Position numbers and translations under genes: made by a program. Positions 14,263 to 30,750 of a DNA stretch of 64,000 nt are shown piece after piece (position 1 is the stretch's first letter; each line of letters starts with the position of its first letter). Source of the DNA: an uncultured Ectothiorhodospiraceae bacterium. Lineage in GTDB: Bacteria > Pseudomonadota > Gammaproteobacteria > CAMYNG01. The stretch spans positions 4,549-68,548 of the forward strand of contig CAMYNG010000014.1 of assembly GCA_947259765.1 (NCBI GenBank), written 5' to 3'. The notes beneath the pieces were generated by a model. That model had not been told where the DNA came from. It saw nothing but the letters and a program-made list of their open reading frames with translations, and did no database searches.

Positions 14263-15234
14263 TTGGCCAACCTTTCAGTAGTAATCATGTCGGCATACCT
14301 CAAGTATAAAAACGGTGAAGCAATCGATCAGATACCGTGCAAGACGGTGTTAACGATCGGCCGTGACAAAAACAGCGACATTGTACTCAATGACCTGCGT
14401 GTTTCCCGTAATCACGCCATGGTCAGGCAAATCGGCCGCAGCGACTACTACTTAATCGACAGCGGCAGCGCCAATGGCAGCTATGTGAACAAACGCAGGG
14501 TGGCCATGCCTACGCTGTTGAAAAATGGTGATCGCGTCACCATTGGGAACGTGGCATTCGTTTTCGACCAGGTGAGCAAAGAGGAGGACAAGTCGGATAC
14601 GGTTTCCATGCTTGAAACGATTGTTGTAGATGGCTCCACTATCAAGCAAAACACAATTCTTGTTGCGGACATTCGCGGCTTTACTTCCCTGTCGGAAGAA
14701 GTCCATATTAAAACGCTGACCAAGTTAATGAATAGCTGGTTTCAGCAAGTCGCTGATTCTATTGTGGTGAACGGTGGAGAGGTCGACAAGTTTATCGGTG
14801 ATTGTGTATTTGCCCGTTGGGATACCGCCGAGGATCAGGAACAGACCGTTTGCCAGGCCTTAAAAGCCGCACAACAAATTAACGAGATTAGCGGTAAGCT
14901 CGGTAGTACCTTTCAGGATATAAAGCGTGAAATGAAGGTTGGCGTAGGGATCAATACCGGTTCCGCATCGGTAGGAATCGGGCAGGAAAACACGGCGCTG
15001 GGTGATGCGGTTAACGTTGCTTTTCGACTGGAGAGCGCCAGTAAGACTATCGGCAACGACGTCATACTGAGCGAATCAGTATATCGGTTTGTGCCGGAAA
15101 AATTCTGGCAAGGTAATGAGCAGGCCATTTCCGTTAAGGGCAAACAGCTTCCCGTACGCGTCGTGGGACTGGATTTTCCGCAACTAAAAAAAATCGTTAC
15201 GGTTCTTGAAAAATCACAGAAACGTAAAAATTAA
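14263..15234 (+). CDS. FHA-domain protein fused to a class III adenylate/guanylate cyclase catalytic domain
   Basis: FHA motifs are present (TIGRDKNSDIVL, SRNHA, YYLIDSGSANGSYVN). Cyclase motifs follow (VADIRGFTSLSEE, KFIGDCVFARW, GVGINTGSASVGIGQENTALGDAVNVAFRLES). An alternative start lies at 14287. Confidence 0.85.
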   Translation: MANLSVVIMSAYLKYKNGEAIDQIPCKTVLTIGRDKNSDIVLNDLRVSRNHAMVRQIGRSDYYLIDSGSANGSYVNKRRVAMPTLLKNGDRVTIGNVAFVFDQVSKEEDKSDTVSMLETIVVDGSTIKQNTILVADIRGFTSLSEEVHIKTLTKLMNSWFQQVADSIVVNGGEVDKFIGDCVFARWDTAEDQEQTVCQALKAAQQINEISGKLGSTFQDIKREMKVGVGINTGSASVGIGQENTALGDAVNVAFRLESASKTIGNDVILSESVYRFVPEKFWQGNEQAISVKGKQLPVRVVGLDFPQLKKIVTVLEKSQKRKN

Positions 15235-15389
15235 CTTCTGAATTATATAAAACCGAAACCTAGGGGTCACAGAGAAAATTTGTAACGATCAAGCTCTCAG
15301 AGTCCCCTGTGCTTGGTTTGATTTGGTTCGGCCCAAGTTTTTTTAACACCCGAAACTTCTATTCCCTGCCGAGGCCTGCCTGAGAGACA

Positions 15390-15839
15390 TCACACTTTGT
15401 CTTCCGCGCCTTTGTCATGACGCAGGAAAATGCGTATCTCTTCCAAAGCGTTTTCCATTTCGAGTTTTATATCGTTGATGATGCGCGCAGCGGGCCCGGC
15501 AAACTGCCAGTCTTTATGTTCTGGATCGTTACTTTGCAGGGCGGCCTGGCCCCGATGTAGAATTTCGGCGTCCTCGTCGGGGATGAACTGAGCCAGTAAC
15601 ACGTAGGCTTCTGCGAGGCTTTGCGCTACCGAAGACTGCTCCTTGCCTAATTCCCATATCAATAGTTGCAATGCGTTCTTGATTTTGTCCTTGCTATACG
15701 GCAACTGTGATTCAGGCATGCCTACGCTGGCGTCGGCTTTGTCTGCAAGTGCGTGACCCAGATCGCTGACGATGACTTGGGCCGCGCGTATTTGCGCTTG
15801 CGGATTATTCTGGTCGGATTGGGGTAATCTTGATTTCAT
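15390..15839 (-). CDS. Hypothetical protein (149 aa, predicted alpha-helical)
   Basis: ORF with no recognisable motif. It is convergent with the FHA-cyclase gene. Confidence 0.4.
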   Translation of the reverse strand: MKSRLPQSDQNNPQAQIRAAQVIVSDLGHALADKADASVGMPESQLPYSKDKIKNALQLLIWELGKEQSSVAQSLAEAYVLLAQFIPDEDAEILHRGQAALQSNDPEHKDWQFAGPAARIINDIKLEMENALEEIRIFLRHDKGAEDKV

Positions 15840-15948
15840 TGCTTCAGCATGGCTAAGCGATACACTCGGCGCATCGACGGTCTGCGGATCTTATTCCAGT
15901 GGATAGTAGCCGATGACCCGGTTAGCCTCGTGTTCCAGCCGCGCCAAA

Positions 15949-16464
15949 CTATTTTGCGGAGGAAATGTAACGCGACAGATCGGGCAGCCGGTGTCCCTTA
16001 TATTTGATCTGTCCATCCGGGGCAACCAGGACAATTGTCGGGGTCGCTGCCAAACTGTATTTTTCAATTACGTTTTCCTTTTGCTCGTCGTCATTCAGGA
16101 CGAGGTAGGGAAGTTTGTTATCACTGACAAACTCCTTTACCTCAGTGCGATTTTCATAACCGATGTTAACCGCAACGAGTGTAAGACCTTTCTTGCGATA
16201 TTGTTCATGAATGTTTTTAAATTGCGGGATCATCGCATAGCAGTAGTGGCAGCGAGTGGACCAGAACAATAACAACACGTAGCCTTTTTTCCGCAACTGC
16301 TCCAGGCTGTGGGATTTACCTCGTAAATCAGACAGTGAAAAAACCGGAGCAGTGTGACCTGCGCCGACGCCGACCTGCTCGTTGGTCGCCGCCAAGGGCA
16401 GGGCCGTGTGCAGTAGAAATATCAACGCAATTACTGATTTTGAGTACATGGATTTGACAAGCAT
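15949..16464 (-). CDS. TlpA/redoxin-family thiol:disulfide oxidoreductase (periplasmic thioredoxin-like)
   Basis: CxxC motif in the thioredoxin-fold context LLLFWSTRCHYCYAMIPQF. The signal-peptide-like N-terminus is MLVKSMYSKSVIALIFLLHTALPLAA. The ORF track extends to 16530. Confidence 0.8.
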   Translation of the reverse strand: MLVKSMYSKSVIALIFLLHTALPLAATNEQVGVGAGHTAPVFSLSDLRGKSHSLEQLRKKGYVLLLFWSTRCHYCYAMIPQFKNIHEQYRKKGLTLVAVNIGYENRTEVKEFVSDNKLPYLVLNDDEQKENVIEKYSLAATPTIVLVAPDGQIKYKGHRLPDLSRYISSAK

Positions 16465-16638
16465 AGTGAATTTTCCGCAGATTTGCCTGTGACATGATAC
16501 ACAAGACCGAACATCGATTGTATTCAACAATCAGGATTACAGCGTATATTCACGGCTGACCGAATCACCTGCCGGTTTGCGACGTGGACAGGCGGAATTC
16601 GTTAGCGAACTGTTTTAAAATTCGCGCTACGGGAATAA

Positions 16639-17370
16639 ATGTACCGGAAGGATTCTGGAGGTTTGGGTACAGTGGACACCGCAGTAATGGCATTGGCCAC
16701 GTTTGGGGGGCCCATTTTGTTACTTTTAGTGGGCGCGGGCCTGGGATTCGCTGCTTACCGGGTGTGGCGTGATTACGGACAATATTGGCGACCCATGCGA
16801 CGGTTGACCCGCAATTGGTTGCACGAGATACAGTTGCCTGGTGGGCCGGACGGCGATACGTTCGTAGAACACGTGGCGTTGCTACCTGGCGGCCTACTGG
16901 TTCTGCACATAATGGATTTTAACGGTGCCATTTTTGGCGCGCGCAATACGGATTTCTGGACCCAAGTGCTGGACCGTCGTAGTTATCGATTTCCGAATCC
17001 CTCTGAGAAACTTAAGGCCACAACCGGAGCCGTGCGCGCGGCCGTTGGTGATGAACAGGTCGTCGGTCACATTGTTTTTTCCGATAGTTGCTCCTTTCCC
17101 AAAGGCATTCCGGAAGGCGTTTCCACGGCGCGTGAGTTGACAACCGTACTTGAGGACCTGGCCCTTGGAACGGTTTCCGAATCGCGCCGTGAAGCCTGGG
17201 ACGGGCTCAAGAACCAGGTGAGCGGGCCGCAGTCAGGGAAAACTTCGAGCTCGTATTTGGGTAACTGGAACCGGTTCGTATTTCGTGCGATTCTGGCACT
17301 TGGGCTGGTTCTAAGCTCTATTCTTTGGTCCGGGTGGGTGATTTGGCAGACTAACTTCAACGACATTTGA
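16639..17370 (+). CDS. Membrane-anchored NERD (nuclease-related domain) protein
   Basis: N-terminal TM helix followed by the NERD-like core FVEHVALLPGGLLVLHIMDFNGAIFG. A second C-terminal TM segment is present. Confidence 0.55.
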   Translation: MYRKDSGGLGTVDTAVMALATFGGPILLLLVGAGLGFAAYRVWRDYGQYWRPMRRLTRNWLHEIQLPGGPDGDTFVEHVALLPGGLLVLHIMDFNGAIFGARNTDFWTQVLDRRSYRFPNPSEKLKATTGAVRAAVGDEQVVGHIVFSDSCSFPKGIPEGVSTARELTTVLEDLALGTVSESRREAWDGLKNQVSGPQSGKTSSSYLGNWNRFVFRAILALGLVLSSILWSGWVIWQTNFNDI

Positions 17371-17394
17371 GACTTTTAGTGGACAGGTGTATTA

Positions 17395-17844
17395 ATGCTG
17401 GCAGTATTAAAAAAGGTATTTTCTGTAGACGATTCGACGTCACCGGACCCGGAGCGCGATGATGTTCGGTTGTCCGCTGCATTGTTATTGCTTGAGGCCA
17501 TGCACGCCGATCACAGCGTGAGCGCTGACGAACAGATCGCGGTGGACAAGGGTTTACAGGCTTTGTTCGAGATTTCTGAGATTGAGGCGCGAGAGTTGCG
17601 TGAGTCCGCGGAACGGCGATTTGAGGAAGTGACCTCAATGCATGAGTTTGTTGCGGCAGTCAACACCCATTTCAGCGAAACACAAAAAGAACAGGTTGTC
17701 GAAATCATGTGGCGTATCGCACACAGTGACTGCGTGCTGGATAAGTATGAAGATAACATTATTCGCCGGGTCGCCGAATTACTTCATCTGAGTCATGCGC
17801 GCTTTATTCAAGCAAAACATCGGGCGACCGAAAACAACTCATGA
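17395..17844 (+). CDS. TerB-family (tellurite-resistance TerB-like) protein
   Basis: 149 aa. The acidic helical pattern with internal repeat (DEQIAVDKGLQALFEI ... EQVVEIMWRIAHSDCVLDKYEDNIIRRVAELLHLS) is typical of TerB-fold proteins. Confidence 0.6.
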   Translation: MLAVLKKVFSVDDSTSPDPERDDVRLSAALLLLEAMHADHSVSADEQIAVDKGLQALFEISEIEARELRESAERRFEEVTSMHEFVAAVNTHFSETQKEQVVEIMWRIAHSDCVLDKYEDNIIRRVAELLHLSHARFIQAKHRATENNS

Positions 17845-17864
17845 GCGCTTGAAAAAGGATCTGT

Positions 17865-18377
17865 TTGCCGGTGTCCGAGGTTTACAGGGAAGGAAAGTAC
17901 GAACAATTGATGATGTCAAACGGTATCAAGCTGCTTGTCATTGCGATTGCTGCATTTTTTGCAGCAAGTGCGCTGGCTGCGCCGCCGGTTGCTGCGCCAA
18001 CCAAGGGCTATGTTGCGCGCTCACAATTTACTACGGAAATTGTTGACCGCGAGCCCATCAATCGAGTGCTTGTGTTGGCAAATGATGTTCGTGAGGTTTT
18101 CTTTTTTACCGACTTGCGTGGCCTGGATGGGCAGACTGTTACCCACCGCTGGGAGCACAATGGTAAAGTGGTTTCTACAGTCGAGTTCAAGGTCAAGGGT
18201 CCGCGCTGGCGAGTATTTTCACGCAAGGACCTGGACCCGTTTGCTTTGGGAAAGTGGACCGTTGTTGTGACGGACGCAAACGGCTGGCCCATTAAAGCCG
18301 TTATATTTAAGTACGTGGATCCTGCACAAAGCAGCGACATGCAAGAAATCATACTGCCGCCGGAGGGTGAAAACTAA
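17865..18377 (+). CDS. Secreted DUF2914-like protein
   Basis: A signal peptide follows the alternative start at 17913 (MMSNGIKLLVIAIAAFFAASALA). The C-terminal segment FFFTDLRGLDGQTVTHRWEHNGKV...WRVFSRKDLDPFALGKWTVVVTDANG resembles DUF2914. Confidence 0.5.
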   Translation: MPVSEVYREGKYEQLMMSNGIKLLVIAIAAFFAASALAAPPVAAPTKGYVARSQFTTEIVDREPINRVLVLANDVREVFFFTDLRGLDGQTVTHRWEHNGKVVSTVEFKVKGPRWRVFSRKDLDPFALGKWTVVVTDANGWPIKAVIFKYVDPAQSSDMQEIILPPEGEN

Positions 18378-18412: not shown

Positions 18413-21400
18413 TTACGGCCGTTCGAGGATTGTCTCCTCGACATCCGTTGTAGGTAATATTTCGTCAGACCCCACTGCCGGTTCTTGCTGTTCCGTTGAG
18501 AGTTGCTGTTTCCACTTCGATAACAAACGTTGGTATTCCGATTCCGCCTCATCCCTGACGCGCGTATTGGCGTGACTGCGTGCTGCCGCCATGCCAGCCA
18601 GTTGTTTGTCGCGTTCGGCTGCTGCGGCAGCGGCAGCGACAGCGGCGTCGACTTCTTCCGGTTTTTTCGTGTGCGTCTCTTGCGGTTCAACCCAGGACGC
18701 CACTTTTTCGACGTCAACATAGGTTTCACTGTTTATGGCGACAAAGCCCAGCACGCCTACCATGACCACACTGGCGGCGATGGCAATCACCGAACGTTTG
18801 TGGCGTTTGAAGGCGGATTCCTCGCTACTGTCCTTATTCTCCTGGGGGCCCGGTCGAACGGCGTTTATGGGCGCCAGTGAGCTGAAGTCATACTCGCTGC
18901 CGTCGCCATCGGTGATCTCGATTTCGTGCGAATCGGCGGAGCTGTTTACCGTGAACGACGGAATATCGTCATCCTGCTTTTTCTTGCTACGAGCGGAGCG
19001 CGTGGGTCGCTGTTCATCAGCCGCGGTAGATAAATTCGGGATATCATCGTCTTCATCGTCCTCATCATCGATCTCCTGGACGGATTTCGGACGTTGGAAA
19101 ATGAAAATGTCTTCTTCGCCCTCAAGTATGGTTCTGCCCTTGACTTCGCGAACCTGCGTACGGGCCAGCGACATGCCGTCGGCAACCGTACCGGGCTCCG
19201 TTACCTGGCGCTGTCTATCGGCTTCGTGCAGCTTGCTGACAATCTCCTCCGCCATTTCTCGTGCCTTGGCTTCGGATTGCTCACGCGCAGCCTGACGGCG
19301 GCGCTCGGCTTCGAGGCGTTCACGGGCTTCCTGTTCGGCCTGAATCGCTTCCTCTGCACGTCGGCGCGCCTCAGTCTCGGCTTCGGCCTTGGCGCGGGCG
19401 GAGTTCTCTGCCTGGCGGCGGGCTTCTGCTTCGGCTTGGGCCCTGGCGGCGGCCTCCGCTTCGGCACGCGCGAGTTCAGCGGCTTTGGCTTCGGCACGTG
19501 CACGTTCCGCGGCTTCCGCCGCTTCGGCCCTGGCGCGTTCTGCAGCTTCACGCCTGGCCTGTTCGGCCTGGGCTCGCTCGACGGATTCGCGCTCGACCTG
19601 GGCACGCGCTGCGGCTGCGGCTTCGGCACGGGCCCGTTCCGCGGCTTCGGTTTCGGCTTCGATTCGTCTGCGCTCGGCGGTTTCTGCTTCAATCCGGGAG
19701 CGCTCGGCAACTTCGGCTCTGGCACGTTCCGCAGCTTCGGCTTCCGCACGGGCCCGTTCTGCGGCTTCCGCTTCAGCCTTCGCACGTGCCTGGGCGGCGG
19801 CTTCGGCTTCCATTTTGGCGATGGATGCGCGGGCGGCGGCGGCCTGTGCTTCGGCTGCTTCCTCCGCCTCGCGACGAATACGCGCTGCGGCTTCAGCTTC
19901 CTCACGCGCCTTGGCGGCTTCTTGGGCCATTTGCTGACGGGTGAGGGTCAACTCGTTACGTAAACGCTCGGCTTCTTCGCGGGCCTGCTCCCGAATGGCT
20001 TCCGCTTCAGCGCGTAGACGTTGGGCATCCTCTTCGGCCTGCGCGCGGGCGGAGGAAGCGGCTTGCGCGGCGGTCAGCGCTTCGTCACGCGCAGTTTGAC
20101 GCTCGGCCTCGAGTTCTTCCTGTCTTTTGGAAGCCTCTTCGGATTGTGTCCGGATACGAGCCAGTTCTTCCTCTGCCAGTTTGCGTGTGGCCGAGGCATC
20201 GGCGCGCAGTTTTTCGGTTTCCGCCACCGCTTGTTGCTTGGTGAGTTCGGCGTCCTGTTTCAGGCGTTCCGCCTCAGAGAGGGCCTGTTTACGCAGTTCT
20301 TCGGCTTTTTGAGCCCGCTTGGCCTCTTGTTCGACACGTTGCTTGGCTGACTCCAATTCACGGTTGTAGCGGTTTTGGTTTTCTTCCAGTCGTTTGGCTT
20401 CGGCAAGTGCTTGTAGCCGAGCTTCCTCGGCCTTTTTCGCGCGTGCCGACTCTTTTTCGGCACGTTTGCAGGCGGCGTCAAGTTCCGCGGTGTAGTGAGT
20501 TTTTTGCATGCGCTGCATGCGTTCGGCTTCATCCAGCGCTTTCTTGCGCGACTCCTCGGCCTTCTTGGCGCGTTCGGCTTCCGCTTCGGCGCGTTTCCTT
20601 GCGGCCTGCAGTTCACGGTCTTTTTTCGCCTGGTTTTGCTTTTTGATCTTTTCCGCGTCTTTCAATGCCTGCTGGCGCGCTTTCTCTGCTTCCTCTGCGC
20701 GTCGAGCCTGCTCCGAGGCGTGTTTTCGCGCGGCTTGAAGCTCCGCCTCTTTACGTGCAATTTCTTCTTTCTTCAAATTTTCCAGTTCGCGTCGTGCTTC
20801 TGACTTTGCAGCTTCCGCCTGCGCGGTTTTTTCCGCCAGGTCTTTCGCCTGCTTGCGTAATTGTTCCGCCTCTTCTTGCAGCTTGGTGCTGGCCTCGTCC
20901 GCGATCACGGTCTGTTTTTGCGCAACGGTTCTAACCGAGTCTTTAAAACCGCCTGAAGTTGTACTGGGTTTTGAGCTCGTGTCGCCAGACTTCGGTTCTT
21001 CGGTGGGCGTTAACGGTTTCTGTCGCGGTTTAAGAGTGGATTTCTTTTTTGCTTTCGCAGGCTTTGACTCCGCTTCGAGGTTGACGATATTGCCATCTTG
21101 TCCGGTGGTGGCCAATTTACTTACGTTGAGACCGCCTTGTAGCACCTTGCACTTAAGGCCCTGCTGCGTCAGTAAAAACGCCGCCGCAGCACTTAAGGTG
21201 CCGTCGTTGCAATAAAGGATATAGTCGCGTTCCGGATTCAAAGAGTTCACCCGCGTCCGCAATGCGGACAGGGGGATATTGGTCGCGCCGGGCAGAGTGT
21301 TCTTCTGGAATTCAGCGTTGGTGCGCACGTCGAGCAGATAACTTCCGCCATTGATTAACGTTGTCGCGGAGGCGTCATCGATATAATCCAGCAATGGATC

Positions 21401-22243
21401 CACAAGTAGCGGAATAAAATCGTCCTTGTGCAGGCGCATTAACGTGCCGTCTTCCAACATTGTCACGGTGGCATTACGCTTGCCATTCGTGATCAGGGCT
21501 TCTTCACCAAAACCGTCGCCGTTGGACAGAATTGCGAGCCGCACATCTGACGCTTTACGCGTTGGTCGGCGCGAAACGGCGCATTCGCCTCGTTTGACAA
21601 TGTAATAGTAGTCATCATCTTCACCCTGCTTGACGATAACCGATCCCTTTTTGGCTCTTATCTCTTCCATGCTGATAAGCAGACGCTGAATGTTTTCCGT
21701 CGGCAGATGCAGGAAGGTGCTCGATTGCAGAAAGCGCAGCATCCAGTCGTTGGTCTGGTCTTCTGCGCTGTGTTCGGTCACCTGGTAGGAGTCGAAGGAA
21801 TGATCGCCACACAACAGGATATCGAGTAAGTCCGGGTCGACCACAAACACCGTAACGGGTGTTTTTGCTCTGGCGGTGCAGCAGCGTGGCAGTTTGTCTG
21901 AAATCGCTTTGACAGTGTCGGGCGTTTTGGCCTTGATTAGTGTGGTGCGCGGCTTACCGATCTCGGAGAGTTCGATCTGCCCCTGCATGAGGAAGAAGTG
22001 ACGCTTGTCGCGTTCGCCCTGGCGAAACAAAGTCCGTCCGGCCGGATACTCCTCAATGGAAGATTTATCTATAATTTCTTCGAACTTGTCGGCCGTCAAT
22101 TCATTGATCGGTTCGAAGGTTCGCAGCATTTTGCGATCGACTTGTTTTTGCGGTTGTGCCATTTGCCTGTCCCGGGCGCGGTGATCCCCAGCGTCTAGAG
22201 TGAGTGAGTCATCGTGCTTTGTCGCGAAAACCAAAATACCCAA
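18413..22243 (-). CDS. Giant multidomain protein: 2x cNMP-binding domain, rhodanese domain, ~600-aa Ala/Glu/Arg/Lys coiled-coil repeat (TolA-like), C-terminal TM anchor and short periplasmic tail
   Basis: CAP-family cNMP-binding motifs appear twice (FRQGERDKRHFFLMQGQIEL; VIVKQGEDDDYYYIVKRGECAV). A rhodanese active-site loop is present (YILYCNDGTLSAAAA). There are long runs of AEAEAAERARAEAE repeats, and a single TM helix SVIAIAASVVMVGVLGFVAI near the C-terminus. An alternative start (MAQPQKQ) lies at 22162. Confidence 0.85.
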   Translation of the reverse strand: MGILVFATKHDDSLTLDAGDHRARDRQMAQPQKQVDRKMLRTFEPINELTADKFEEIIDKSSIEEYPAGRTLFRQGERDKRHFFLMQGQIELSEIGKPRTTLIKAKTPDTVKAISDKLPRCCTARAKTPVTVFVVDPDLLDILLCGDHSFDSYQVTEHSAEDQTNDWMLRFLQSSTFLHLPTENIQRLLISMEEIRAKKGSVIVKQGEDDDYYYIVKRGECAVSRRPTRKASDVRLAILSNGDGFGEEALITNGKRNATVTMLEDGTLMRLHKDDFIPLLVDPLLDYIDDASATTLINGGSYLLDVRTNAEFQKNTLPGATNIPLSALRTRVNSLNPERDYILYCNDGTLSAAAAFLLTQQGLKCKVLQGGLNVSKLATTGQDGNIVNLEAESKPAKAKKKSTLKPRQKPLTPTEEPKSGDTSSKPSTTSGGFKDSVRTVAQKQTVIADEASTKLQEEAEQLRKQAKDLAEKTAQAEAAKSEARRELENLKKEEIARKEAELQAARKHASEQARRAEEAEKARQQALKDAEKIKKQNQAKKDRELQAARKRAEAEAERAKKAEESRKKALDEAERMQRMQKTHYTAELDAACKRAEKESARAKKAEEARLQALAEAKRLEENQNRYNRELESAKQRVEQEAKRAQKAEELRKQALSEAERLKQDAELTKQQAVAETEKLRADASATRKLAEEELARIRTQSEEASKRQEELEAERQTARDEALTAAQAASSARAQAEEDAQRLRAEAEAIREQAREEAERLRNELTLTRQQMAQEAAKAREEAEAAARIRREAEEAAEAQAAAARASIAKMEAEAAAQARAKAEAEAAERARAEAEAAERARAEVAERSRIEAETAERRRIEAETEAAERARAEAAAAARAQVERESVERAQAEQARREAAERARAEAAEAAERARAEAKAAELARAEAEAAARAQAEAEARRQAENSARAKAEAETEARRRAEEAIQAEQEARERLEAERRRQAAREQSEAKAREMAEEIVSKLHEADRQRQVTEPGTVADGMSLARTQVREVKGRTILEGEEDIFIFQRPKSVQEIDDEDDEDDDIPNLSTAADEQRPTRSARSKKKQDDDIPSFTVNSSADSHEIEITDGDGSEYDFSSLAPINAVRPGPQENKDSSEESAFKRHKRSVIAIAASVVMVGVLGFVAINSETYVDVEKVASWVEPQETHTKKPEEVDAAVAAAAAAAERDKQLAGMAAARSHANTRVRDEAESEYQRLLSKWKQQLSTEQQEPAVGSDEILPTTDVEETILERP

Positions 22244-22318
22244 AATAATTAGGGTTTTGGGGATTTAAACAGCCGAATCTCCCCTCAATGAATCTTAGAA
22301 GACAATTCATGTCTTCGT

Positions 22319-22334
22319 TGTGACTGCCTTCACA
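22319..22334. promoter_or_regulatory. Perfect CRP/FNR-family palindrome TGTGACTGCCTTCACA upstream of the giant cNMP-binding protein gene
   Basis: The sequence matches TGTGA-N6-TCACA exactly. It lies ~76 nt upstream of the 22243 start codon (minus strand) in the tonB/giant-gene intergenic region. An adjacent 8-bp inverted repeat GAAGACAATTCATGTCTTC lies at 22298-22316. Confidence 0.55.
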
Positions 22335-22397
22335 AACGGCTGATTTTCTTGTTATTCGGGTTTCAGCGGTTTGGACGGAGTCGACGAGCTCATTGGC

Positions 22398-23360
22398 TCA
22401 GGAGGGGAGAAATACGACCGGGTAGGTGACGGTAATGGTGCCGACGCTTTTACTGCCAAAATTGAACAGTTTTATTCGCGACATCAGACGTTTTTCCAGC
22501 GCAGGCGAGTTGAGTTCACTTGAAACAACACTGATTTTAGTGATTTTGCCTGACGGGGCGATAGTCAGTTTTAACACCAGTTTGCCCTGCAGCGAGGGGT
22601 CGGTACGGAGTGCCCGGGAGTAGATCCGATCAATGGCGCCCTTGTTCTTATCAAAGATCAGCTGAATTTCCTCGTCCGTACGCCCGGCCTTGCGCGACTT
22701 TTTGCCGCCCAGGGTGCTTTGGTTTTTGCTGCTGATGTTGCTGGAGACCTTGGTGGACTCGCGTTTCGCCAGCTTTGTGGACTCCGCGGTACGGGCCATG
22801 CTGCCAGTATTGATGCCGCCGGACGCAGTGCCCGCGCGTGCAGTCAGGAGCGACTCCGTACCGGTACCACTGGCGGTTACCGCGGCCGCGCTTTGACTTA
22901 GCTGCCCTTTGCTGGTGCTGCTGACGTCAAAATCATCCCGCAAGTCAGACAATTCGTCCGTCCACGCTAGTGCTTGCTGTGCCTTCTTACGTGCCGCTTC
23001 GGAGGTATCAACCTTGGGCTTGGGCTTGGGTTTCGGTTTGGGTTTTTCCTTTTTGGCGACCTTTTCTTTCTTCTTCACCGCTGGTTTTTTCTTCTCAACC
23101 TTGGGCTTCGGTTTGGCCTTGGGTTTTGGCGGCGGTGGAGGTGGTTTCTGCTGCCGTTCAAGGATCACCTTGGCCAGACGCGGTGGAACTTCCTCAAGTT
23201 TTTGTCGGTCTACCTCAGGCACAGGCAGGATTGAGAGAATGATACCGAGCAAGGTCGCCACAAGTAGGCTGGCGACCACCATGCGTTTAAAACGAATATC
23301 GGTGTCAAGATCCGCCCACGGCAGGATGGGATCACGAACATAGTAGTCCGCATAGGCCAT
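22398..23360 (-). CDS. tonB: Energy transducer TonB (Pro/Lys-rich spacer, C-terminal TonB domain)
   Basis: N-terminal TM helix, a PPPPPPKPKAKPKPKVEKKKP spacer, and a conserved C-terminal TonB-fold segment (GKLVLKLTIAPSGKITKISVV...GTITVTYPVVF). Confidence 0.85.
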   Translation of the reverse strand: MAYADYYVRDPILPWADLDTDIRFKRMVVASLLVATLLGIILSILPVPEVDRQKLEEVPPRLAKVILERQQKPPPPPPKPKAKPKPKVEKKKPAVKKKEKVAKKEKPKPKPKPKPKVDTSEAARKKAQQALAWTDELSDLRDDFDVSSTSKGQLSQSAAAVTASGTGTESLLTARAGTASGGINTGSMARTAESTKLAKRESTKVSSNISSKNQSTLGGKKSRKAGRTDEEIQLIFDKNKGAIDRIYSRALRTDPSLQGKLVLKLTIAPSGKITKISVVSSELNSPALEKRLMSRIKLFNFGSKSVGTITVTYPVVFLPS

Positions 23361-23872
23361 CAGTTAACACCTCCAGCGGAACTTGACCGTTGTACGACCG
23401 CAAGGGAGATATCCGGAAAATTCGCCTGCGCGCTGGTTTGCATGATGCGTTTCAGGAGTTTGTAGGGAATCTCCCGATCACCCACGATGGTGATCTTGCC
23501 GCGCTTCTTCGCATCCTGACCTGCGCGTGCTGCACGCGCCGAGTGAAAGTTCAGTTCTGTGAGCAGCGGTTTGATGACGCCCTTGCCGCCGTTTGTCGCT
23601 TTGTCGATGCTGACGACGGGACGACCTTGCACCAGGATATCCGACTCATTGACTAAGATCGTGACGGTTTCCTTGGGTTTTTGTTCGGCACTCGATTCGG
23701 GTAATTTCACCGATTTGGTGCTGGGCAATACCTCGACTTCGGAAGAATTGACCAGCAGGAAAAACACCAGGATGGTAAAGATGTCCATCAGGGAAACCAT
23801 GTTCAAGCCTACATTGCGCTTTTTACGCTTGTAGTGCTGTTGCATCCGCTTTGCGCGGCGTGACATTTTCAT
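23360..23872 (-). CDS. exbD: Biopolymer transport protein ExbD/TolR (copy 2)
   Basis: The pattern INVTPLVDVMLVLLIIF typical of ExbD is seen as GLNMVSLMDIFTILVFFLL. Length ~170 aa. Confidence 0.85.
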   Translation of the reverse strand: MKMSRRAKRMQQHYKRKKRNVGLNMVSLMDIFTILVFFLLVNSSEVEVLPSTKSVKLPESSAEQKPKETVTILVNESDILVQGRPVVSIDKATNGGKGVIKPLLTELNFHSARAARAGQDAKKRGKITIVGDREIPYKLLKRIMQTSAQANFPDISLAVVQRSSSAGGVN

Positions 23873-23890
23873 GGTGTTTATTTCCTGCTC

Positions 23891-24397
23891 TTAACGGCTT
23901 TTGGTCGTGCGCGGCGCGTCGCCAATGGAAATGTCCGGAAACAATTCAGCGTTAATAGCCTCGCCGAACTGCACGCTCTTAAACATGCGCACGGAATCCA
24001 TGACCTGGACCAGGGTGTCGTAGGACGTGTCCGGCTCAGATAAAATACTGGCGGCGGTTTTATCCGGGAAACGCGCTTTGACCTGTTGCAAAAGCTTGGA
24101 GAGCGCAACGTAGTCATGCTTATCGCTTTTTTTCGGGATGCGTTTAATCAGGCCGCCGCGTGAGTCGGCAATCTCCAGCGCCGGATCGCGGATAATTACT
24201 TGTAGGTGGAACTCCGGTTTCTCTGCACCCTTGGCGGTATTCCCCGTGGGGAGATTGAGTTGCAGGATCGCAACCCGCGAAAATACGGCCGTGATCAATA
24301 GGAACGGTACCAGGATCACCATCAGGTTCATAAACGCGGTGATATTAAGTTCGGCGGCCTCTATGCTACGGCTGCGCCTTGCTCGAAAACGTCGCAT
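23891..24397 (-). CDS. exbD: Biopolymer transport protein ExbD/TolR (copy 1)
   Basis: ELNITAFMNLMVILVPFLLI TM motif. Length ~168 aa. Confidence 0.85.
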   Translation of the reverse strand: MRRFRARRSRSIEAAELNITAFMNLMVILVPFLLITAVFSRVAILQLNLPTGNTAKGAEKPEFHLQVIIRDPALEIADSRGGLIKRIPKKSDKHDYVALSKLLQQVKARFPDKTAASILSEPDTSYDTLVQVMDSVRMFKSVQFGEAINAELFPDISIGDAPRTTKSR

Positions 24398-24399
24398 GG

Positions 24400-25041
24400 T
24401 CAGGAGCTAGTGGTCTTGTCCGTGATCAGGTTGACGAATTTAACGCTCGCCATTTCCAGACTATCGACGATTTCCGTGGTCTTGGTTTGAATCACCGTGT
24501 ACACAAGTAAAAGCGGAATCGCGACCATCAAACCAAACGCCGTGGTGTTCATGGCCACCGAAATACTCGATGACAACAAGTCGGCTTTTTGCGACGGGTC
24601 GGCATTGGATACTGCGGTAAAGGCCTGAATAAGACCGATGATTGTGCCCAGAAGTCCCAGCAGTGTCGCAATGTTGGCAAAGGTCGCCAGATAGTGAGTA
24701 CGTTTCTCCAGCCGCGGCAGGACTTCCATCATGCCTTCTTCCATGGCCATCTCGATATCATCACGTCGTTTGGCAGTTTTCATTCGCGCCAGGCCGTATG
24801 ACAGGATCTGGCTGATAGCCTGATTGGATTTCGACGTGATGTTGAATGCGCCCTGGTAATCGCCGCGTTTTAACATCGGCAGGATTTTGTTCATGAGCCT
24901 GCGGTTGTTGGTCTTGGCAACGGACAGGTAAATGTAGCGTTCAAGTGCAATTGCAACGCCGAGCGCGAGTACCAACATGATGGGGTACATGAAAAGTCCG
25001 CCTTCCTGAAAAAAGCCGACAATACTGGTGTACACGTTCAT
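24400..25041 (-). CDS. exbB: MotA/TolQ/ExbB proton-channel family protein
   Basis: Three TM helices. The conserved C-terminal channel region is TLLGLLGTIIGLIQAF...AFGLMVAIPLLLVY. Confidence 0.9.
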   Translation of the reverse strand: MNVYTSIVGFFQEGGLFMYPIMLVLALGVAIALERYIYLSVAKTNNRRLMNKILPMLKRGDYQGAFNITSKSNQAISQILSYGLARMKTAKRRDDIEMAMEEGMMEVLPRLEKRTHYLATFANIATLLGLLGTIIGLIQAFTAVSNADPSQKADLLSSSISVAMNTTAFGLMVAIPLLLVYTVIQTKTTEIVDSLEMASVKFVNLITDKTTSS

Positions 25042-25203
25042 TCCTAAATCTCCCAGTACATTTTACTAAATGTGTGTAAGTTGAAAGTTGGATCCGGAAG
25101 TTTTCTGGGCCAAGCCTTCGAAGTCAGCTTGCGGCCGAACCGGTTGGCGACTTTTATTTATAGTCGCCGCTGCTTTTTTAAAAACTAGGTTTTGTACATC
25201 CAT

Positions 25204-25485
25204 TTACTCTGTCAGCTGATAGTGGAATTTCACCTGGCGCTGGAACACATCCCGTTCTATGGGTGACAAAGCATCATTAATGAGCTGGTTCAGCGGTAAC
25301 TCACTGGCATTGGGTAATTCTGATTGTTGCCAGGGCACAATATACAACACTTTGGGTAACTCACGATTACCTACTACGGTAGTACCTTCCAGATTGACGA
25401 CTTCCTCGGCGTGTACCGCAGCAGACAAAAACAACGGCAGACAGGCTAGCAGGACTGGCTGAAAAAAACATTGTTTAACTCGCAC
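25204..25485 (-). CDS. Small secreted hypothetical protein (93 aa) upstream of exbB
   Basis: Signal peptide MRVKQCFFQPVLLACLPLFLSAAVHA. No recognised domain. Confidence 0.4.
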   Translation of the reverse strand: MRVKQCFFQPVLLACLPLFLSAAVHAEEVVNLEGTTVVGNRELPKVLYIVPWQQSELPNASELPLNQLINDALSPIERDVFQRQVKFHYQLTE

Positions 25486-25499
25486 TTCGATTTCCTCCG

Positions 25500-26120
25500 T
25501 TAGCCGGATTTAGCGGCACGACGTTCAATATCTACAATCCATTTCGCGACCTGCTTATCAGAATCGCCAGTTAAAGATTGATACCGCTTGTATTCCTTAA
25601 GCGCCTGTTTCGCATCTTTAAGATAAATATCATACAGGATACCAAGGTTAAGATGCGCAGATGCGTAGTCTGTTTTAATTTCCAAGGCACGTTGGTAGGA
25701 TTTTTGTGCCTCAGCAAACTTGCCCTGGCGTCGGTAAACGATGCCCAGAACGTTATGTCCAACCGCGTTGCCCGGGTTTAACGCCAGCGCCTTGGTCAGT
25801 TCCTTTTCCGCCTGCGGTAATTTATTTTCACGTAAATAAAGAATACCCAGATTAACGTGAGGTCCGGCCAATTCCGGTTGGCTGCTTGAGATTTGTTTCA
25901 AGGTAGACAACGCGCGTTGTGATTGGCCCGACTGAATAAGCGATAGCGCGTACTGGTAACGAGTATGGGTGGCCGGGGTTATCGGCGGCGGTGGCTTGCT
26001 GGCTACCACCGGCTCGGTGGTTTGGCACCCTGAAAGAAAAGCAAACACTACAAATAAAAGGAAGACTAGGGTGTTAGTGGATCTCACGTAAATACTCCTC
26101 GCTTCGCTCCTGCCGGGCAT
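25500..26120 (-). CDS. TPR-repeat lipoprotein
   Basis: Lipobox-like FLSGC and three to four TPR motifs (GPHVNLGILYLRENKLPQAEKELTKALALNP...). The start overlaps the upstream gene, so the true start is uncertain. Confidence 0.7.
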   Translation of the reverse strand: MPGRSEARSIYVRSTNTLVFLLFVVFAFLSGCQTTEPVVASKPPPPITPATHTRYQYALSLIQSGQSQRALSTLKQISSSQPELAGPHVNLGILYLRENKLPQAEKELTKALALNPGNAVGHNVLGIVYRRQGKFAEAQKSYQRALEIKTDYASAHLNLGILYDIYLKDAKQALKEYKRYQSLTGDSDKQVAKWIVDIERRAAKSG

Positions 26121-28932
26121 AGCGAACCGGTTGCAACTTAGCCAACACGGTCAAACTGCTTTTTACCCATTTGTCGTAGATGCCGTCCGTAATGCGATTC
26201 ACGTTCGTAACGTGGATGTCGATGGCCTTTTCTTCAAAGGGGAAGGCCTGTTCTTCCAACAAAATCTCGTATTGTTCAAGTTCCTCGCCTTTCAATCCTC
26301 GGGGTCGTTGCGATTTCAGCAGCGATTTTGCGAAGTCGTGATACAGCTCGCCGACCTGATAGGTGGCGGCCGTTGTAACTGCCGCTACATTGAATTCGAT
26401 CGCTTTTTGGTAGGCCTGGATGGCTTGCTGCATTAACTTTTTCTTGTTCTTCAGGCTCTTCTTTAACGGTTGGGTCAGTTTTACGCGCTTGTATGCCGCG
26501 CGCGCCGGCTCAGCGAGTTGTAGTGTGGCACTGGCGGCGATGTCCCGCGTACGCGGCGTACGACTGGCGGCCATTTTTTTGTCCACCTTGACAATATCTT
26601 TAAGCCAGTAAAAGCGTTTTTTCTGATCACCTTTTTTACCGTACAAGGCAGCTAGTTGAAAGCGCGCCTCCATGGACTCAGGCATTTTCGTGGGATACTG
26701 CTTAACGTAGGCACTGTAGGCGCGAAGGGCGTCATTGCCGCGGCCGGTGTCCTTGTACATATTGGCTGACTGCCAGAGCATGGCCATGCGGATGCTCGGG
26801 TCAGCGTGCGTGGCTGCCATGGTTTCAATTTCCCGCGCCGCCTTGCTGGTACTGCCGGTCTTGCCGTAAACAACAGCCAGTTTTTCAGTAACGCCTTGCT
26901 GAAGCTTATGGTTTTTCGGGTAACGGCGACGGAAATCCTCCAGTACGTTGGCGGCTCGCGGCCAGTCTTGCATCGTCATCAGTGCGGCACCGGCATCGTA
27001 CTGGGCAGTGGCGGCAACACTTGATCCGGGAGCTACCCGGCCGACCCGCAGGAAGTCATTGACCGCTGCCGCCATCGCGCCGTTTTCACGTCGTTCCTCG
27101 CCCTGTTTGTAGACACTTGCGGCCAGCCGCTCGCGAACTTCGGCATATTGTTTTTGCTTCGGCGAGTAAAGCTTTAGCACTTGAATGTAGGCCTGTTCCG
27201 CGTCGTTATACAGACCGCTCTCAAAATAAGCGTGTCCAAGTACTAACAGGCCGGAACGCTTCAGGTTCCGGTACTTGTTGATACTGGGAAGGGCGACGAG
27301 TTTTTGCGACGTCTCAATTGCGCGGGAATAGTCTTTGGCGTCCAACAATTCCTGGGCGGTGCGCGCATAGACCGCCGGTACGCGTTTATCGTTGGGAAAT
27401 TTTGCGCCGAACTGAAGCGCGGAGTCGATGGCCATGTCCCGAATCTGTGTATCTCCCGCCGCCGCGCGTTTTTCCAATGTTTGATAACCCACCAATGCGG
27501 CATAACCCGCCTCGGCACTTTGCTTGTGCTGCGGATATTGATAAGCGGTTTTCTCGTATTGCGCCACGGCTTCGGCGAGCCGGCCTGCGTCATTAAGTAC
27601 TTCGGCGTAGAGGAAATTAATCGACGGCGATGACGGTTCATTGGGAAATGTGCTGAGATATTGCGCGTACCAATTGGCGGCCTTTTGAAAATCAGCCGGT
27701 TTCTTCGATTTGCGTGCGACCGCATGGTAGTGAGTGGCCAGGTCTCGCAGGTGGACCATGAGTAGCGGCCGTACTTCGGTGCGCGCCTCTTCCGGGTGAG
27801 CCCGGGAAAATGCGCTGTTGGCACCATATAAAGTTACAAAGTCTTCTTTGGCAGGAAGAATAAGACTGGCGAACCCGCCCTGTTTGTATGCGTTGATGGC
27901 GCGGGTGTGGAATCCGGGTGAGCGAACGTCATCGGGATAACGCTGTGCGAAGGCAAGATAAGTATCGGCGGCGTCGCGAATGCGTTCCTTTTCAAGATAC
28001 AGTTTGCCCAGATTGTCATAGATCAGCGCCTCGTAGGGACGTGAACCGGCTTCGCGGAAGTATGCAATGACACTTTTCGGGCCGTCGAGATAGGAAAACG
28101 ACAGACTCACCACGCGCAAGGCGTCGTCGAGCACTTCCTTTTCCGCACGTGACAATTGCGGATCGGGACCGTCGAATCGTAGTTTGCCCTGCTCAAGTTT
28201 GTAATCCAGCAACTTGAAAAACACCACCAATGCATCCTGGCGTTTGCTTTGTTTGAACAGACTCCAGCCGTATTTGTACAGGGCCTTTTCATAGTAGCGA
28301 GATTTTTTGCCGGAGCGTAAAACCTGTTCGTAGGCCAAGCCTGCATCGGTAAAACGTTTGTTTACAAAAAGGATTTCGCCACGACGAAATTGCACTTCGT
28401 CGCGATGCGTTGTGTTGGGGTATTGCTGAATTAACTGGTCTAATGTTTTTAACGCATTTTTATGATCGCCCTTCAGATCGTAAGCCTTGGCCAGTTGGTA
28501 TAGCGCGTTGTCGCTACTTTTTTGTTCAGGGTAGTTGTTGATATAACTGCTGTATAAACCTATTGCGGAATCCACCGGACTGCCGCTGGCGTCTCCGTCA
28601 CCTTTGGCCATTTGATCCTGTCCCGCCTCGAGTTCGATATCAGCGAGTCGACGCATGGCTTCTCGGTAGTTCTCATCTTCAGGTGCTTTTTCGAGAAATT
28701 CCCGATAACCCGAGGCGACCACGTCGCGATCAACTTCGACTTTCTGTTCAGGCTCAAGTACAACCTTGCGCTTGCTTAGAGAGTCGATAGTCGTGTCGCC
28801 GGTCCCGGCACATGCCGACAGCGAAAGCAGCACAGCGCACAGGCACAGATACCTGAAACAAGCAAAAGCTGTTGATATTGGTGGCTTAGGGTTGCGACGA
28901 TGGTAATTGCATCGTCCTGCGTGGTTTACCAT
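26074..28932 (-). CDS. Large TPR-repeat lipoprotein (952 aa)
   Basis: Lipobox LSAC and many TPR-like repeats throughout. It is the first gene of the apparent TPR-TPR-orf-exbB-exbD-exbD-tonB operon. Confidence 0.7.
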   Translation of the reverse strand: MVNHAGRCNYHRRNPKPPISTAFACFRYLCLCAVLLSLSACAGTGDTTIDSLSKRKVVLEPEQKVEVDRDVVASGYREFLEKAPEDENYREAMRRLADIELEAGQDQMAKGDGDASGSPVDSAIGLYSSYINNYPEQKSSDNALYQLAKAYDLKGDHKNALKTLDQLIQQYPNTTHRDEVQFRRGEILFVNKRFTDAGLAYEQVLRSGKKSRYYEKALYKYGWSLFKQSKRQDALVVFFKLLDYKLEQGKLRFDGPDPQLSRAEKEVLDDALRVVSLSFSYLDGPKSVIAYFREAGSRPYEALIYDNLGKLYLEKERIRDAADTYLAFAQRYPDDVRSPGFHTRAINAYKQGGFASLILPAKEDFVTLYGANSAFSRAHPEEARTEVRPLLMVHLRDLATHYHAVARKSKKPADFQKAANWYAQYLSTFPNEPSSPSINFLYAEVLNDAGRLAEAVAQYEKTAYQYPQHKQSAEAGYAALVGYQTLEKRAAAGDTQIRDMAIDSALQFGAKFPNDKRVPAVYARTAQELLDAKDYSRAIETSQKLVALPSINKYRNLKRSGLLVLGHAYFESGLYNDAEQAYIQVLKLYSPKQKQYAEVRERLAASVYKQGEERRENGAMAAAVNDFLRVGRVAPGSSVAATAQYDAGAALMTMQDWPRAANVLEDFRRRYPKNHKLQQGVTEKLAVVYGKTGSTSKAAREIETMAATHADPSIRMAMLWQSANMYKDTGRGNDALRAYSAYVKQYPTKMPESMEARFQLAALYGKKGDQKKRFYWLKDIVKVDKKMAASRTPRTRDIAASATLQLAEPARAAYKRVKLTQPLKKSLKNKKKLMQQAIQAYQKAIEFNVAAVTTAATYQVGELYHDFAKSLLKSQRPRGLKGEELEQYEILLEEQAFPFEEKAIDIHVTNVNRITDGIYDKWVKSSLTVLAKLQPVRYARQERSEEYLREIH

Positions 28933-29444
28933 TTTCGAACTTTAAACTTCGGGCTTTCTCCACCGGCGGCGTCGGTGATCAGCAATTCAATATGGGTCGG
29001 TTCGATACCGGGACTGACCTGTTCGCTGTACTTGCCGGTGACGGAACGATGGCCCTTGCCAAAGCCGATAAACTCGGCAACAAATTCATGGCTGCCCGGC
29101 CCGAGATTTCCACTATAAATACGGTGAACGGCGCTTTTTGCCAGGGCGCCCGATTCCCGCTCCGTATATAAATGGCGCACCAGCCGCTTGCCGTCCAGCT
29201 TCAATTCCAGCGTATCGAGGGCGAACGGCTCGCGGGTTTTCGTCGCGACGTATATATTAAGGCTCGCGGTTCGCAGGCGCGGGTCGGCGTTTTCGATCTC
29301 ATCGAGTTTTTGCGCAAACGACGTTTCACCTTGCGCGTGGGCGGAGGGAAAATTCGGCAGCCCAGCTTGTAACCACAGCGTACAAGCAGCGAGGGTAAAA
29401 CACAGGGCGCGGAGGTAGATGGTTTTCAAAGGTTCAGTCACCAA
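28926..29444 (-). CDS. Hypothetical secreted protein (172 aa)
   Basis: Signal peptide. No recognised motif. Confidence 0.4.
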   Translation of the reverse strand: MVTEPLKTIYLRALCFTLAACTLWLQAGLPNFPSAHAQGETSFAQKLDEIENADPRLRTASLNIYVATKTREPFALDTLELKLDGKRLVRHLYTERESGALAKSAVHRIYSGNLGPGSHEFVAEFIGFGKGHRSVTGKYSEQVSPGIEPTHIELLITDAAGGESPKFKVRKW

Positions 29445-29652
29445 ACCGGTTATAACTCGATAAGCGCCGGTTTTCCATCACAAATTCAAACACAGCGGAG
29501 TGTATTTCAGGGACCCGGGCTGACGTGAGATGCGACCCATCGAGCTTGCCGGGCAGGTATTATTGCCTACAAAGACTACTGAATTATAAAGGGTTTTCAT
29601 GTGAACATCTGTTAGGCCAGTCACAAAATCCACTCCTTGGGAATCCTGCGCG

Positions 29653-30750
29653 TCACGGTTTTTCAGCACGGTCCATCGCTGCGGGCTCGGGCGGTTGCAG
29701 GCCCTTTGAGTAGTGTAAAAGTCCTTTGGCATCAATAATTATCGCCTCAATCCCCGGTAGCCGCTCAATCAGTGCCAGCCCCTTTTTTGGACCCAATACG
29801 AACACAGTGGTCGAAAGTGCATCGGTTGTGGTTGCGTCCGGGCCCAGAACGGACACGCTGCGACTTCCGCGCGCCGGTTTGCCCGTGTCGGGACTTAATA
29901 TATGGTGAAAGCGGACACCGTCGCGGATGAAGTAGCGCTCGTAGTCGCCAGACGTGGAAATCGCGCTATCGGTGAGCGGCAGTAACACGGCGGTTTCTTT
30001 TCCTTGTCGTGGATCCCGGATACCGGTTAGCCACGGGCGGCCGCGGCGATCGCCCATAATTCGCGTGTCACCGCCGGCAGTCACCAATGCGTGCGTTATT
30101 CCCAGGTCTTGCAAGATCATTATGCCGCGGTCCACGGCATAACCCTTAGCGATGCCTCCCAGGTCGATGCGTACTCCCGGTTGCGTGAAGCGAATAGATT
30201 GAGATGTCGTAGCCAGCTTTATGTTGCGATAGTTTACTCCTGGAAGCGCAGAGTCGATTTGTTTCTGGCTGGGCGCGCGCTTTTTCCTGTAATCGTACAG
30301 GTAGCCGACGCTGGCGAAGGTGACATCGAAAGCGCCATCGGACAGTCGGGAAAACTTCAAGGCGCGTTGTATCAGGGCAAAAAACTCCCTGCTGATAGGT
30401 ACTTTTTCTTTTGCCGCAAGTTGATTAACTCGGGAGAGTTCGCTGTCAGGACGATACGGGCTGTACTGATCATCAATGCGTCGCATCTCGTGCATGACCG
30501 CCTCGATGGCTTCTTCGGCATGTTGTGGGTTGTCGCTCCACAACTCGACGCGAATGGCGGTTCCCATTATCGCCTGCTCGGCGTCAAACCATTTTGCATC
30601 TGCACGTGGGCAAACCGCCAGGGTAAAAACTAACCCGAAAATCAGCGTGAATGTTGCCGAGCAGCGATTTGATTTTTTTCTACAGGAACGTTGAATTTGC
30701 ATCACCTTTATTCTGCCACAGCCTTCTTGCCGCCGTGGCATTGTACTCAA
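29653..30750 (-). CDS. apbE: FAD:protein FMN transferase (ApbE family), probable lipoprotein
   Basis: ApbE-like motifs are present (AIMGTAIRVELW, DLGGIAKGYAVDRG). The N-terminal lipobox is LAVC. An alternative start lies at 30705. Confidence 0.85.
   Translation of the reverse strand: MSTMPRRQEGCGRIKVMQIQRSCRKKSNRCSATFTLIFGLVFTLAVCPRADAKWFDAEQAIMGTAIRVELWSDNPQHAEEAIEAVMHEMRRIDDQYSPYRPDSELSRVNQLAAKEKVPISREFFALIQRALKFSRLSDGAFDVTFASVGYLYDYRKKRAPSQKQIDSALPGVNYRNIKLATTSQSIRFTQPGVRIDLGGIAKGYAVDRGIMILQDLGITHALVTAGGDTRIMGDRRGRPWLTGIRDPRQGKETAVLLPLTDSAISTSGDYERYFIRDGVRFHHILSPDTGKPARGSRSVSVLGPDATTTDALSTTVFVLGPKKGLALIERLPGIEAIIIDAKGLLHYSKGLQPPEPAAMDRAEKP

Follow-up and report, generated by a model that had tools for sequence, protein, structure and literature searches.

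The question raised by this locus is whether an exact TGTGA-N6-TCACA palindrome lying in front of a gene for a giant cyclic-nucleotide-binding (cNMP-binding) protein is a regulatory site and, if so, what kind of promoter it would belong to and which signal it would convey. The DNA that was analysed, called the window in the following, is a stretch of 64,000 nucleotides from one contig of an uncultured Ectothiorhodospiraceae bacterium. It is noted that TGTGA-N6-TCACA is the consensus of the CRP site, and that in a class II promoter such a site is centred at −41.5 (PMC2844151). By coordinate, the exact palindrome reported in the first-pass annotation is indeed found at 22319-22334, and with the consensus of PMC2844151 this stretch has the 16-bp palindromic core of a CRP site. 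The genes around it all lie on the minus strand.

22319-22334, palindromic and without strand: putative CRP-type operator TGTGA-N6-TCACA, reading TGTGACTGCCTTCACA and, on the minus strand, TGTGAAGGCAGTCACA; exact, unique, with conserved half-sites.

The exact pattern occurs once in the 64-kb window, where 0.04 matches are expected, and 4 of 100 dinucleotide-preserving shuffles contain one. With at most one mismatch allowed, the window has 3 matches versus 1.5 expected, which is unremarkable. The consensus match alone, when the whole window is scanned, is suggestive and not decisive.

The gene downstream of the palindrome is the following.

18413-22162, minus strand: giant gene for a 1249-aa protein, based on Pfam, the translation, the conserved ATG and PDB sequence matches.

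The start codon at 22243 that had been assigned to this gene before is merely the first TTG of a mechanically derived open reading frame, and it is the ATG at 22162 (MAQPQKQVDRK...) that aligns with the starts of all the orthologues. The distance of ~76 nt between the site and the start codon has thus to be replaced, the site centre being located ~164 nt upstream of the ATG at 22162. The protein is composed, in order, of a degenerate cNMP domain, a canonical cNMP domain, a rhodanese domain, a coiled coil of ~700 aa that is rich in Ala, Glu, Arg and Lys, one transmembrane helix and a short C-terminal tail. The presence of cNMP-binding domains, as proposed by the first-pass annotation, is borne out by Pfam, with two of them being detected in addition to the rhodanese domain. 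The first is degenerate and the second has an intact canonical phosphate-binding cassette, FGEEALITNGKRNATV, and by sequence they match the cNMP domains of PKG and PKA in the PDB.

It is also noted that the N-terminal 350 aa (21113-22162) correspond to a very large stand-alone family of Gammaproteobacteria, with 1185 matches at E <= 1e-20. The stand-alone members, such as those at 3138-4202 in locus L009 and 2348-3412 in locus L010, consist of a degenerate cNMP domain, a cNMP domain and a rhodanese domain with the conserved Cys, and have no coiled coil. The giant form with the coiled coil and the membrane anchor is a minority variant of that family. In several assemblies the giant form is annotated as two genes across the low-complexity region.

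The evidence that carries the argument comes from the orthologous loci. A genome scan with the N-terminal 350 aa as the query gave 3 orthologues with ~70% identity, in Chromatiales/Gammaproteobacteria MAGs; a metagenome scan gave 2 loci, one of which duplicates L003, leaving 1 new orthologue; and a protein search combined with contig look-ups gave 5 more distant orthologues with 50-55% identity, some of them named Thiohalophilus. The set (n = 10) consists of the window and the nine loci L001, L002, L003, L005, L007, L008, L011, L012 and L013, from uncultured Chromatiales-like Gammaproteobacteria, with protein identities of 50-72% to the window. Only L001/L002, L003/L005 and L008/L012 are close pairs, leaving ~7 lineages that are effectively independent.

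Upstream of the giant gene an exact TGTGA-N6-TCACA is present in 10/10 orthologues, and it is the sole exact match within each fetched locus. The half-sites are invariant among the ten sequences while the bases of the N6 spacer vary, and in a site-anchored ungapped alignment the flanks are 24-37% identical between lineages, which is the random level; a combination of exact half-sites in all ten sequences, a variable spacer and diverged flanks is that of a site under functional constraint. Moreover, because the half-sites are invariant and do not covary, recognition of DNA by a protein is indicated, rather than an RNA hairpin. This phylogenetic footprinting, with exact sites in every orthologue, strongly supports the prediction that the palindrome is a conserved, non-chance binding site for a CRP-like regulator, and likewise the earlier proposal that a CRP-type site controls the cNMP-binding giant gene.

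The neighbour upstream of the giant gene is not the same in all the loci. In the window, L001, L002, L003 and L005 it is a TonB-like gene or Ton-like cluster; in L007, L008, L012 and L013 it is an unrelated gene for 227-258 aa after a methyltransferase gene; and in L011 it is a DUF4389 gene. Whichever neighbour lies upstream, the promoter accompanies the giant gene. The 350-aa paralogues, which lie beside glnB in L009 and L010, are without the CRP-type site, and since this paralogous family lacks it, the regulation would be specific to one clade.

We now consider the kind of promoter that the site would belong to. T, A and T at positions 1, 2 and 6 of the hexamer are the strongest determinants of a sigma-70 −10 element. 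In 10/10 orthologues, TCACA is followed after exactly 21 nt by a hexamer TAnnnT, reading TAAGAT in one sequence, TAGATT in two, TAAATT in four, and TACATT, TAAAGT and TACTCT in one each, with the distance between the site and the ATG ranging from 109 to 165 nt. With the 21 nt being fixed and the distance to the ATG being variable, it can be seen that the site is anchored to the −10 hexamer and not to the coding sequence. The predicted elements in the window are as follows.

22292-22297, minus strand: predicted −10 hexamer TAAGAT, the TAnnnT that lies 21 nt after TCACA in 10/10 orthologues.

22285 (+/- 2 nt), minus strand: predicted transcription start, derived from the −10 hexamer being placed at −12 to −7.

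22163-22284, minus strand: predicted 5' untranslated leader, ~122 nt long, having a small 5' hairpin and no Rfam match.

With the hexamer at −12 to −7, the centre of the operator, between 22326 and 22327, is located at −41.5 relative to the predicted transcription start. The first-pass annotation had regarded the site as an activating one of class I geometry, centred at −60 to −90; by the conserved −10 hexamer, the predicted geometry is instead that of class II. The class I reading (−61.5 to −91.5) was dropped because the sole hexamer at a conserved distance gives −41.5. An alternative −10 hexamer, TTAAAT at 22263-22268, which would place the site at about −70.5, was also rejected, since in L001 and L002 its distance from the site differs by 7 nt and the distant orthologues lack it.

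Relative to the predicted −10 hexamer, the spacing of class II, 21 nt, is found in 10/10 giant-gene promoters and also in 5/5 promoters of an upstream gene cluster that will be described below. In all these 15 promoters the −35 element is poor or absent, the best candidates having 0-3 of 6 matches to TTGACA at 16-18 bp. The giant-gene −10 hexamers are weak and were predicted solely from their conservation. In every respect that can be judged from sequence, the giant-gene promoter has the features predicted for class II. It is also noted that a sigma-70 promoter scan of 21900-22700 gave as its sole promoter-like match one inside a coding region; because the giant-gene promoter is without a −35 element, a consensus sigma-70 scan is blind to it.

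This geometry is similar to that of the galP1 promoter of E. coli, where TCACA is followed by 21 nt and TATGGT, with no −35 element, the spacing being the same as in the giant-gene promoter. The galP1 control region was found upstream of galE at 100% identity, and it matches 5392 of 5426 genomes, being at least 99% identical in 5355 of them. The giant-gene promoter differs from galP1 in that its host is an uncultured Chromatiales-like bacterium, that the gene encodes a cNMP-binding membrane protein rather than a catabolic operon, and that its start and its CRP dependence are predicted.

Based on these data, we propose that the giant cNMP-binding gene is quite probably transcribed from an activator-dependent sigma-70 promoter of class II, of which the palindrome is the operator. 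In this model, a dimer of the CRP/Vfr type, most likely loaded with cAMP, would bind TGTGA-N6-TCACA centred at −41.5, and the bound dimer would substitute for the absent −35 element by recruiting RNA polymerase to the weak TAAGAT (22297-22292). The transcription would then start at ~22285 and, through a leader of ~122 nt, lead to the ATG at 22162.

In some contexts, a site at −41.5 is a repressing one, and it may be argued that the bound regulator acts as a repressor, either by occluding RNA polymerase or by blocking the read-through from the TonB-like gene. The overlap of the site with the −35 region would fit such occlusion, and, as the upstream gene has no predicted terminator ahead of the site, its transcription could continue through the site in the window. 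However, no orthologue has a −35 element, and the −10 hexamers are so weak that the promoter should be inactive without an activator. In addition, the exact phasing at −41.5 is conserved, which is unnecessary for occlusion, and loci without a co-directional Ton-like operon upstream have kept the promoter. Repression by the bound regulator is thus highly improbable.

Next to the operator there is a second palindrome, which the first-pass annotation had described as an adjacent 8-bp inverted repeat. Its position at 22298-22316 stands; its arms are 7 bp long, not 8 bp, and are separated by a 5-nt spacer.

22298-22316, no strand: 7-bp inverted repeat GAAGACA-N5-TGTCTTC, reading GAAGACAATTCATGTCTTC, which fills the spacer between the operator and the −10 hexamer; probably fortuitous.

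The repeat occupies exactly −31 to −13 of the predicted promoter and lies wholly within the 21-nt spacer, and a protein bound there would interfere with RNA polymerase. It might serve a second regulator as a lineage-specific operator, placed between the −10 hexamer and the CRP-type site. Against this is the chance frequency of such repeats: perfect 7-bp inverted repeats with a spacer of 0-10 nt number 70 in the window and 52 +/- 9 in its shuffles, and when this intergenic region is shuffled, 14% of the resulting sequences have such a repeat. Furthermore, GAAGACA-N5-TGTCTTC is absent in 9/9 orthologues. A second operator here is accordingly improbable, and the repeat is probably fortuitous.

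Since both inverted repeats lie between two co-directional genes, it could also be supposed that they act as RNA hairpins, serving as a terminator or processing signal of the upstream operon or as a structure of the leader, rather than as DNA to which a protein binds. This supposition is barely credible. A terminator scan of 21900-22700 gave 0 sites, and neither repeat is followed by a T-run; an Rfam scan of 21500-23000 at E <= 1 gave no match; the 5-bp arms of the CRP-type site are invariant in sequence and never covary; the 7-bp repeat is missing from all nine orthologues; and both repeats, including the 7-bp one, are located upstream of the predicted transcription start. As to the leader itself, the consensus fold of five close relatives is weak (−6 kcal/mol), with one small 5' hairpin and a few compensatory changes, and is unconvincing. 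The loop of the leader hairpin, CGGCTGTTTWAWA, is common to the window, L001 and L002, and in the close relatives a CCCGGGA block lies just before the ATG.

The class II reading of the giant-gene promoter can be compared with a second promoter of the same design that is present further upstream in the window, after the stop codon of an ApbE gene and ahead of the first gene in a Ton-like cluster.

29610-29625, minus strand: second putative CRP-type operator TGTGACTGGCCTAACA, with one mismatch; TGTGA-N6-(T/C)AACA is kept in L014, L015, L016 and L017.

29583-29588, minus strand: second predicted −10 hexamer, a perfect TATAAT, exactly 21 nt after the second operator; predicted start at ~29576.

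22398-29444, minus strand: upstream Ton-like cluster, with the same gene order in L015, L016 and L017.

At the heads of the clusters in the other loci, the same arrangement is found: TGTGATGGGGCTAACA followed by 21 nt and TACCCT in both L015 (1082-1124) and L016 (6306-6348), TGTGACCCACCTAACA followed by 21 nt and TAAGGT in L017 (4452-4494), which has the cluster and no giant gene, and TGTGACTCGTTCAACA followed by 21 nt and TATATT in L014 (5694-5736). The support for the second promoter thus comes from five sequences, two of which are near-identical, with a degenerate right half-site (TAACA or CAACA), and is thinner than that for the first promoter. The composite pattern TGTGA-N6-TMACA-N21-TAnnnT has 2 matches in the window, both gene-oriented, versus 0.00 in 100 shuffles, and in 17 loci it occurs solely at the two promoter positions, always in the gene orientation. 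A weight-matrix scan found no third composite promoter in the window.

It is noted that a further CRP-like site with one mismatch, TGTGACATGATACACA, lies at 16488-16503, in the intergenic region from which an AhpC/TSA-like gene and a NERD gene diverge. It has no counterpart, even with up to 2 mismatches, in the orthologous intergenic regions of L001, L003, L007 and L011, and its distance to a TAnnnT hexamer is 22 nt, not 21. With the site being unconserved and having the 22-nt spacing, it was dropped as a further operator and regarded as due to chance or lineage-specific.

The cluster encodes, in order, a 172-aa protein, a 952-aa TPR protein, a 206-aa TPR protein, a 93-aa ORF, an ExbB/TolQ-like protein, two ExbD/TolR-like proteins and a 320-aa TonB/GltG-like protein. 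The last one is proline-rich, ends at 22398 and has an AgmX/PglI C-terminal domain; the model of this domain, NF033768, gives 69.8 bits versus a cut-off of 40 and is the sole model above its cut-off, while the equivalog models are far below theirs (65.8 versus 650 for GltG, 47.8 versus 225 for GltE, and GltJ likewise low). The ApbE gene together with the whole Ton-like cluster (22398-30750 in the window) behaves as one insertion or deletion. In L007, L008 and L012 the giant gene follows genes for a FAD-oxidoreductase, a CMAS-methyltransferase and the 227-258-aa protein, the contig of L013 ending before the oxidoreductase, and in L014 and L016 the oxidoreductase and methyltransferase genes lie upstream of ApbE.

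In our model, the second promoter (29625-29583), being identical in design, would drive the TPR/ExbB/ExbD/GltG-like cluster. Because of this identical design, both transcription units would answer the same signal.

We then turn to the regulator and its ligand. CRP/Vfr regulators with this consensus are common in the Gammaproteobacteria, and an orthologue would be expected to have a recognition helix of the Arg180-Glu181-Arg185 type. With E. coli CRP as the query, tblastn detected no crp-like gene in the window or in L001-L013, and a literature search found no paper linking Chromatiales with the cAMP receptor protein. What the sequence data show is the site, its conservation, the constant distance to a conserved −10 hexamer, the lack of a −35 element and the second promoter; from the data presented here we infer the identity of the regulator, its ligand, the direction of the regulation, the transcription starts and the link to the following cyclase gene.

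14263-15234, plus strand: FHA-domain class III nucleotide cyclase, CyaB-like, based on Pfam, PDB 3r5g and synteny.

The occurrence of a nucleotide cyclase with an FHA domain in the neighbourhood, as suggested before, is confirmed by Pfam. Its closest solved relative is the adenylate cyclase CyaB of P. aeruginosa (3r5g, 1.4e-20), and in the alignment it keeps, as CyaB does, the Lys in DKFIGD and a Thr at the second specificity position. From what is known of class III cyclases, this CyaB-like Lys/Thr pair indicates ATP as the substrate, and the enzyme is probably an adenylate cyclase. Synteny of the cyclase gene with the giant gene is kept in L001, L007 and L011, all the relatives with contigs long enough to include it, and it is plausible that the enzyme is the source of the nucleotide signal. 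No CRP-like site was found upstream of the cyclase gene.

The region of the window at 14263-18377, downstream of the giant gene, contains genes for DUF2914, TerB, NERD and AhpC-like proteins, a 149-aa ORF without family and the FHA-CyaB-like cyclase, and a similar order is seen in L001, L003, L007 and L011, the relatives being at 50-70% identity. GGDEF genes also recur, at 11944-13191 of the window (minus strand), 654-1781 of L014 and 522-1634 of L016, and a c-di-GMP input to the region is conceivable.

The synteny of the cyclase, its CyaB-like Lys/Thr pair and the intact second cNMP cassette of the giant protein give indirect support to the local cNMP circuit that had been suggested by the first-pass annotation. 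As one of the cNMP-binding domains of the giant protein is intact, the circuit would form a coherent feed-forward loop, in which the nucleotide would induce the effector, namely the giant protein, and would then bind it. The data on the cyclase, the cassette and the site are compatible with such a loop, without being a proof of it.

It may be asked whether the regulator needs to be a cAMP-responsive CRP at all. The operator could be a genuine class II one that is bound by another member of the CRP/FNR family or by a regulator with another ligand, for example a homologue responding to cGMP or a Clp-like protein with c-di-GMP as its antagonist; the locus would then not report cAMP. TGTGA-N6-TCACA is common to several CRP-family regulators, and no crp gene accompanies the giant gene in the loci that were searched. 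Another ligand would also be in line with three further observations: GGDEF genes occur nearby, both in the window and, for L014 and L016, close to the cluster; the phosphate-binding cassette of the giant protein reads R-N-A and is neither PKA-like nor PKG-like; and the best PDB matches of the protein are cGMP-dependent kinases. By contrast, the Lys/Thr pair of the syntenic cyclase is that of the adenylate cyclase CyaB, and an exact consensus of the E. coli type together with the galP1-like spacing is what would be expected of a true CRP/Vfr orthologue. We thus consider another regulator or ligand unlikely and retain a CRP/Vfr-type activator, most likely with cAMP, as the preferred reading. 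It is noted that, because the operator matches the E. coli consensus, heterologous testing in E. coli crp and cya strains is feasible.

The logic proposed for the giant protein resembles that of CbpA of P. aeruginosa, a small and soluble protein having one degenerate and one functional cNMP domain, the expression of which reportedly depends on Vfr-cAMP. With this domain composition and induction, CbpA would be a cAMP effector that is not a transcription factor and would follow the same feed-forward logic as the giant protein. The two differ in that the giant protein has 1249 aa with rhodanese, coiled-coil and transmembrane parts, and they are compared here by description. PMC11139211, citing Endoh and Engel (2009), describes CbpA as a cAMP-binding protein and as a second cAMP effector beside Vfr.

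For the upstream cluster, a likeness can be seen to the TonB3 system of Vibrio vulnificus, which, according to the title of Alice and Crosa (2012) as cited in PMC10734418, is controlled by Lrp and CRP, and which is expressed in serum, or on glycerol when casamino acids are low (PMC6957404). The likeness lies in the features of TonB3 as a CRP-controlled ExbB/ExbD/TonB cluster that is not for iron uptake. The gene orders differ, being ttpB-ttpC-exbB-exbD-tonB-ttpD for TonB3 and 172-aa/TPR/TPR/93-aa/ExbB/ExbD/ExbD/GltG-like in the window. In gene content the cluster also fits the description of the Agl/Glt 'core complex', which is conserved in Gammaproteobacteria and of unknown function (Luciano et al. 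2011, PMC3169522). The core complex is characterised by AglR/Q/S-like ExbB/ExbD proteins, a GltG-like protein of the TonB type and GltD/E/C-like TPR proteins in one cluster; in the window, one apparent operon encodes TPR proteins, one protein like ExbB, two like ExbD and one like TonB with an AgmX/PglI domain, the low equivalog scores given above leaving the likeness a putative one.

A more far-reaching and speculative reading is that the region constitutes a self-contained cAMP module, composed of the FHA-gated CyaB-like cyclase, the CRP-type regulator, an Agl/Glt-like proton-driven motor of the envelope and the giant protein as its cAMP-gated cytoplasmic partner or brake. In such a module the CRP-type regulator would switch on the motor cluster and the membrane-anchored coiled-coil giant together. 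We regard this reading as quite unlikely; if it is true, both a signal and a regulatory subunit would be assigned to the gammaproteobacterial 'core complex', an orphan so far.

Finally, we note what the finding means. A CRP site before a gene is routine in itself, and the predicted operator is a switch of the ordinary kind. What is unusual is how clean the promoter evidence is for an uncultured lineage, with ~7 independent lineages agreeing to the base. The cNMP-binding/rhodanese protein family is widespread, the giant protein being its membrane-anchored form, and the promoter suggests for it a feed-forward design, where the nucleotide would both induce the effector and bind it. With the two promoters, a probable input signal, cAMP acting via a CRP-type regulator, may be given to two gene sets of unknown function, the cNMP/rhodanese giant and the Agl/Glt-like cluster.
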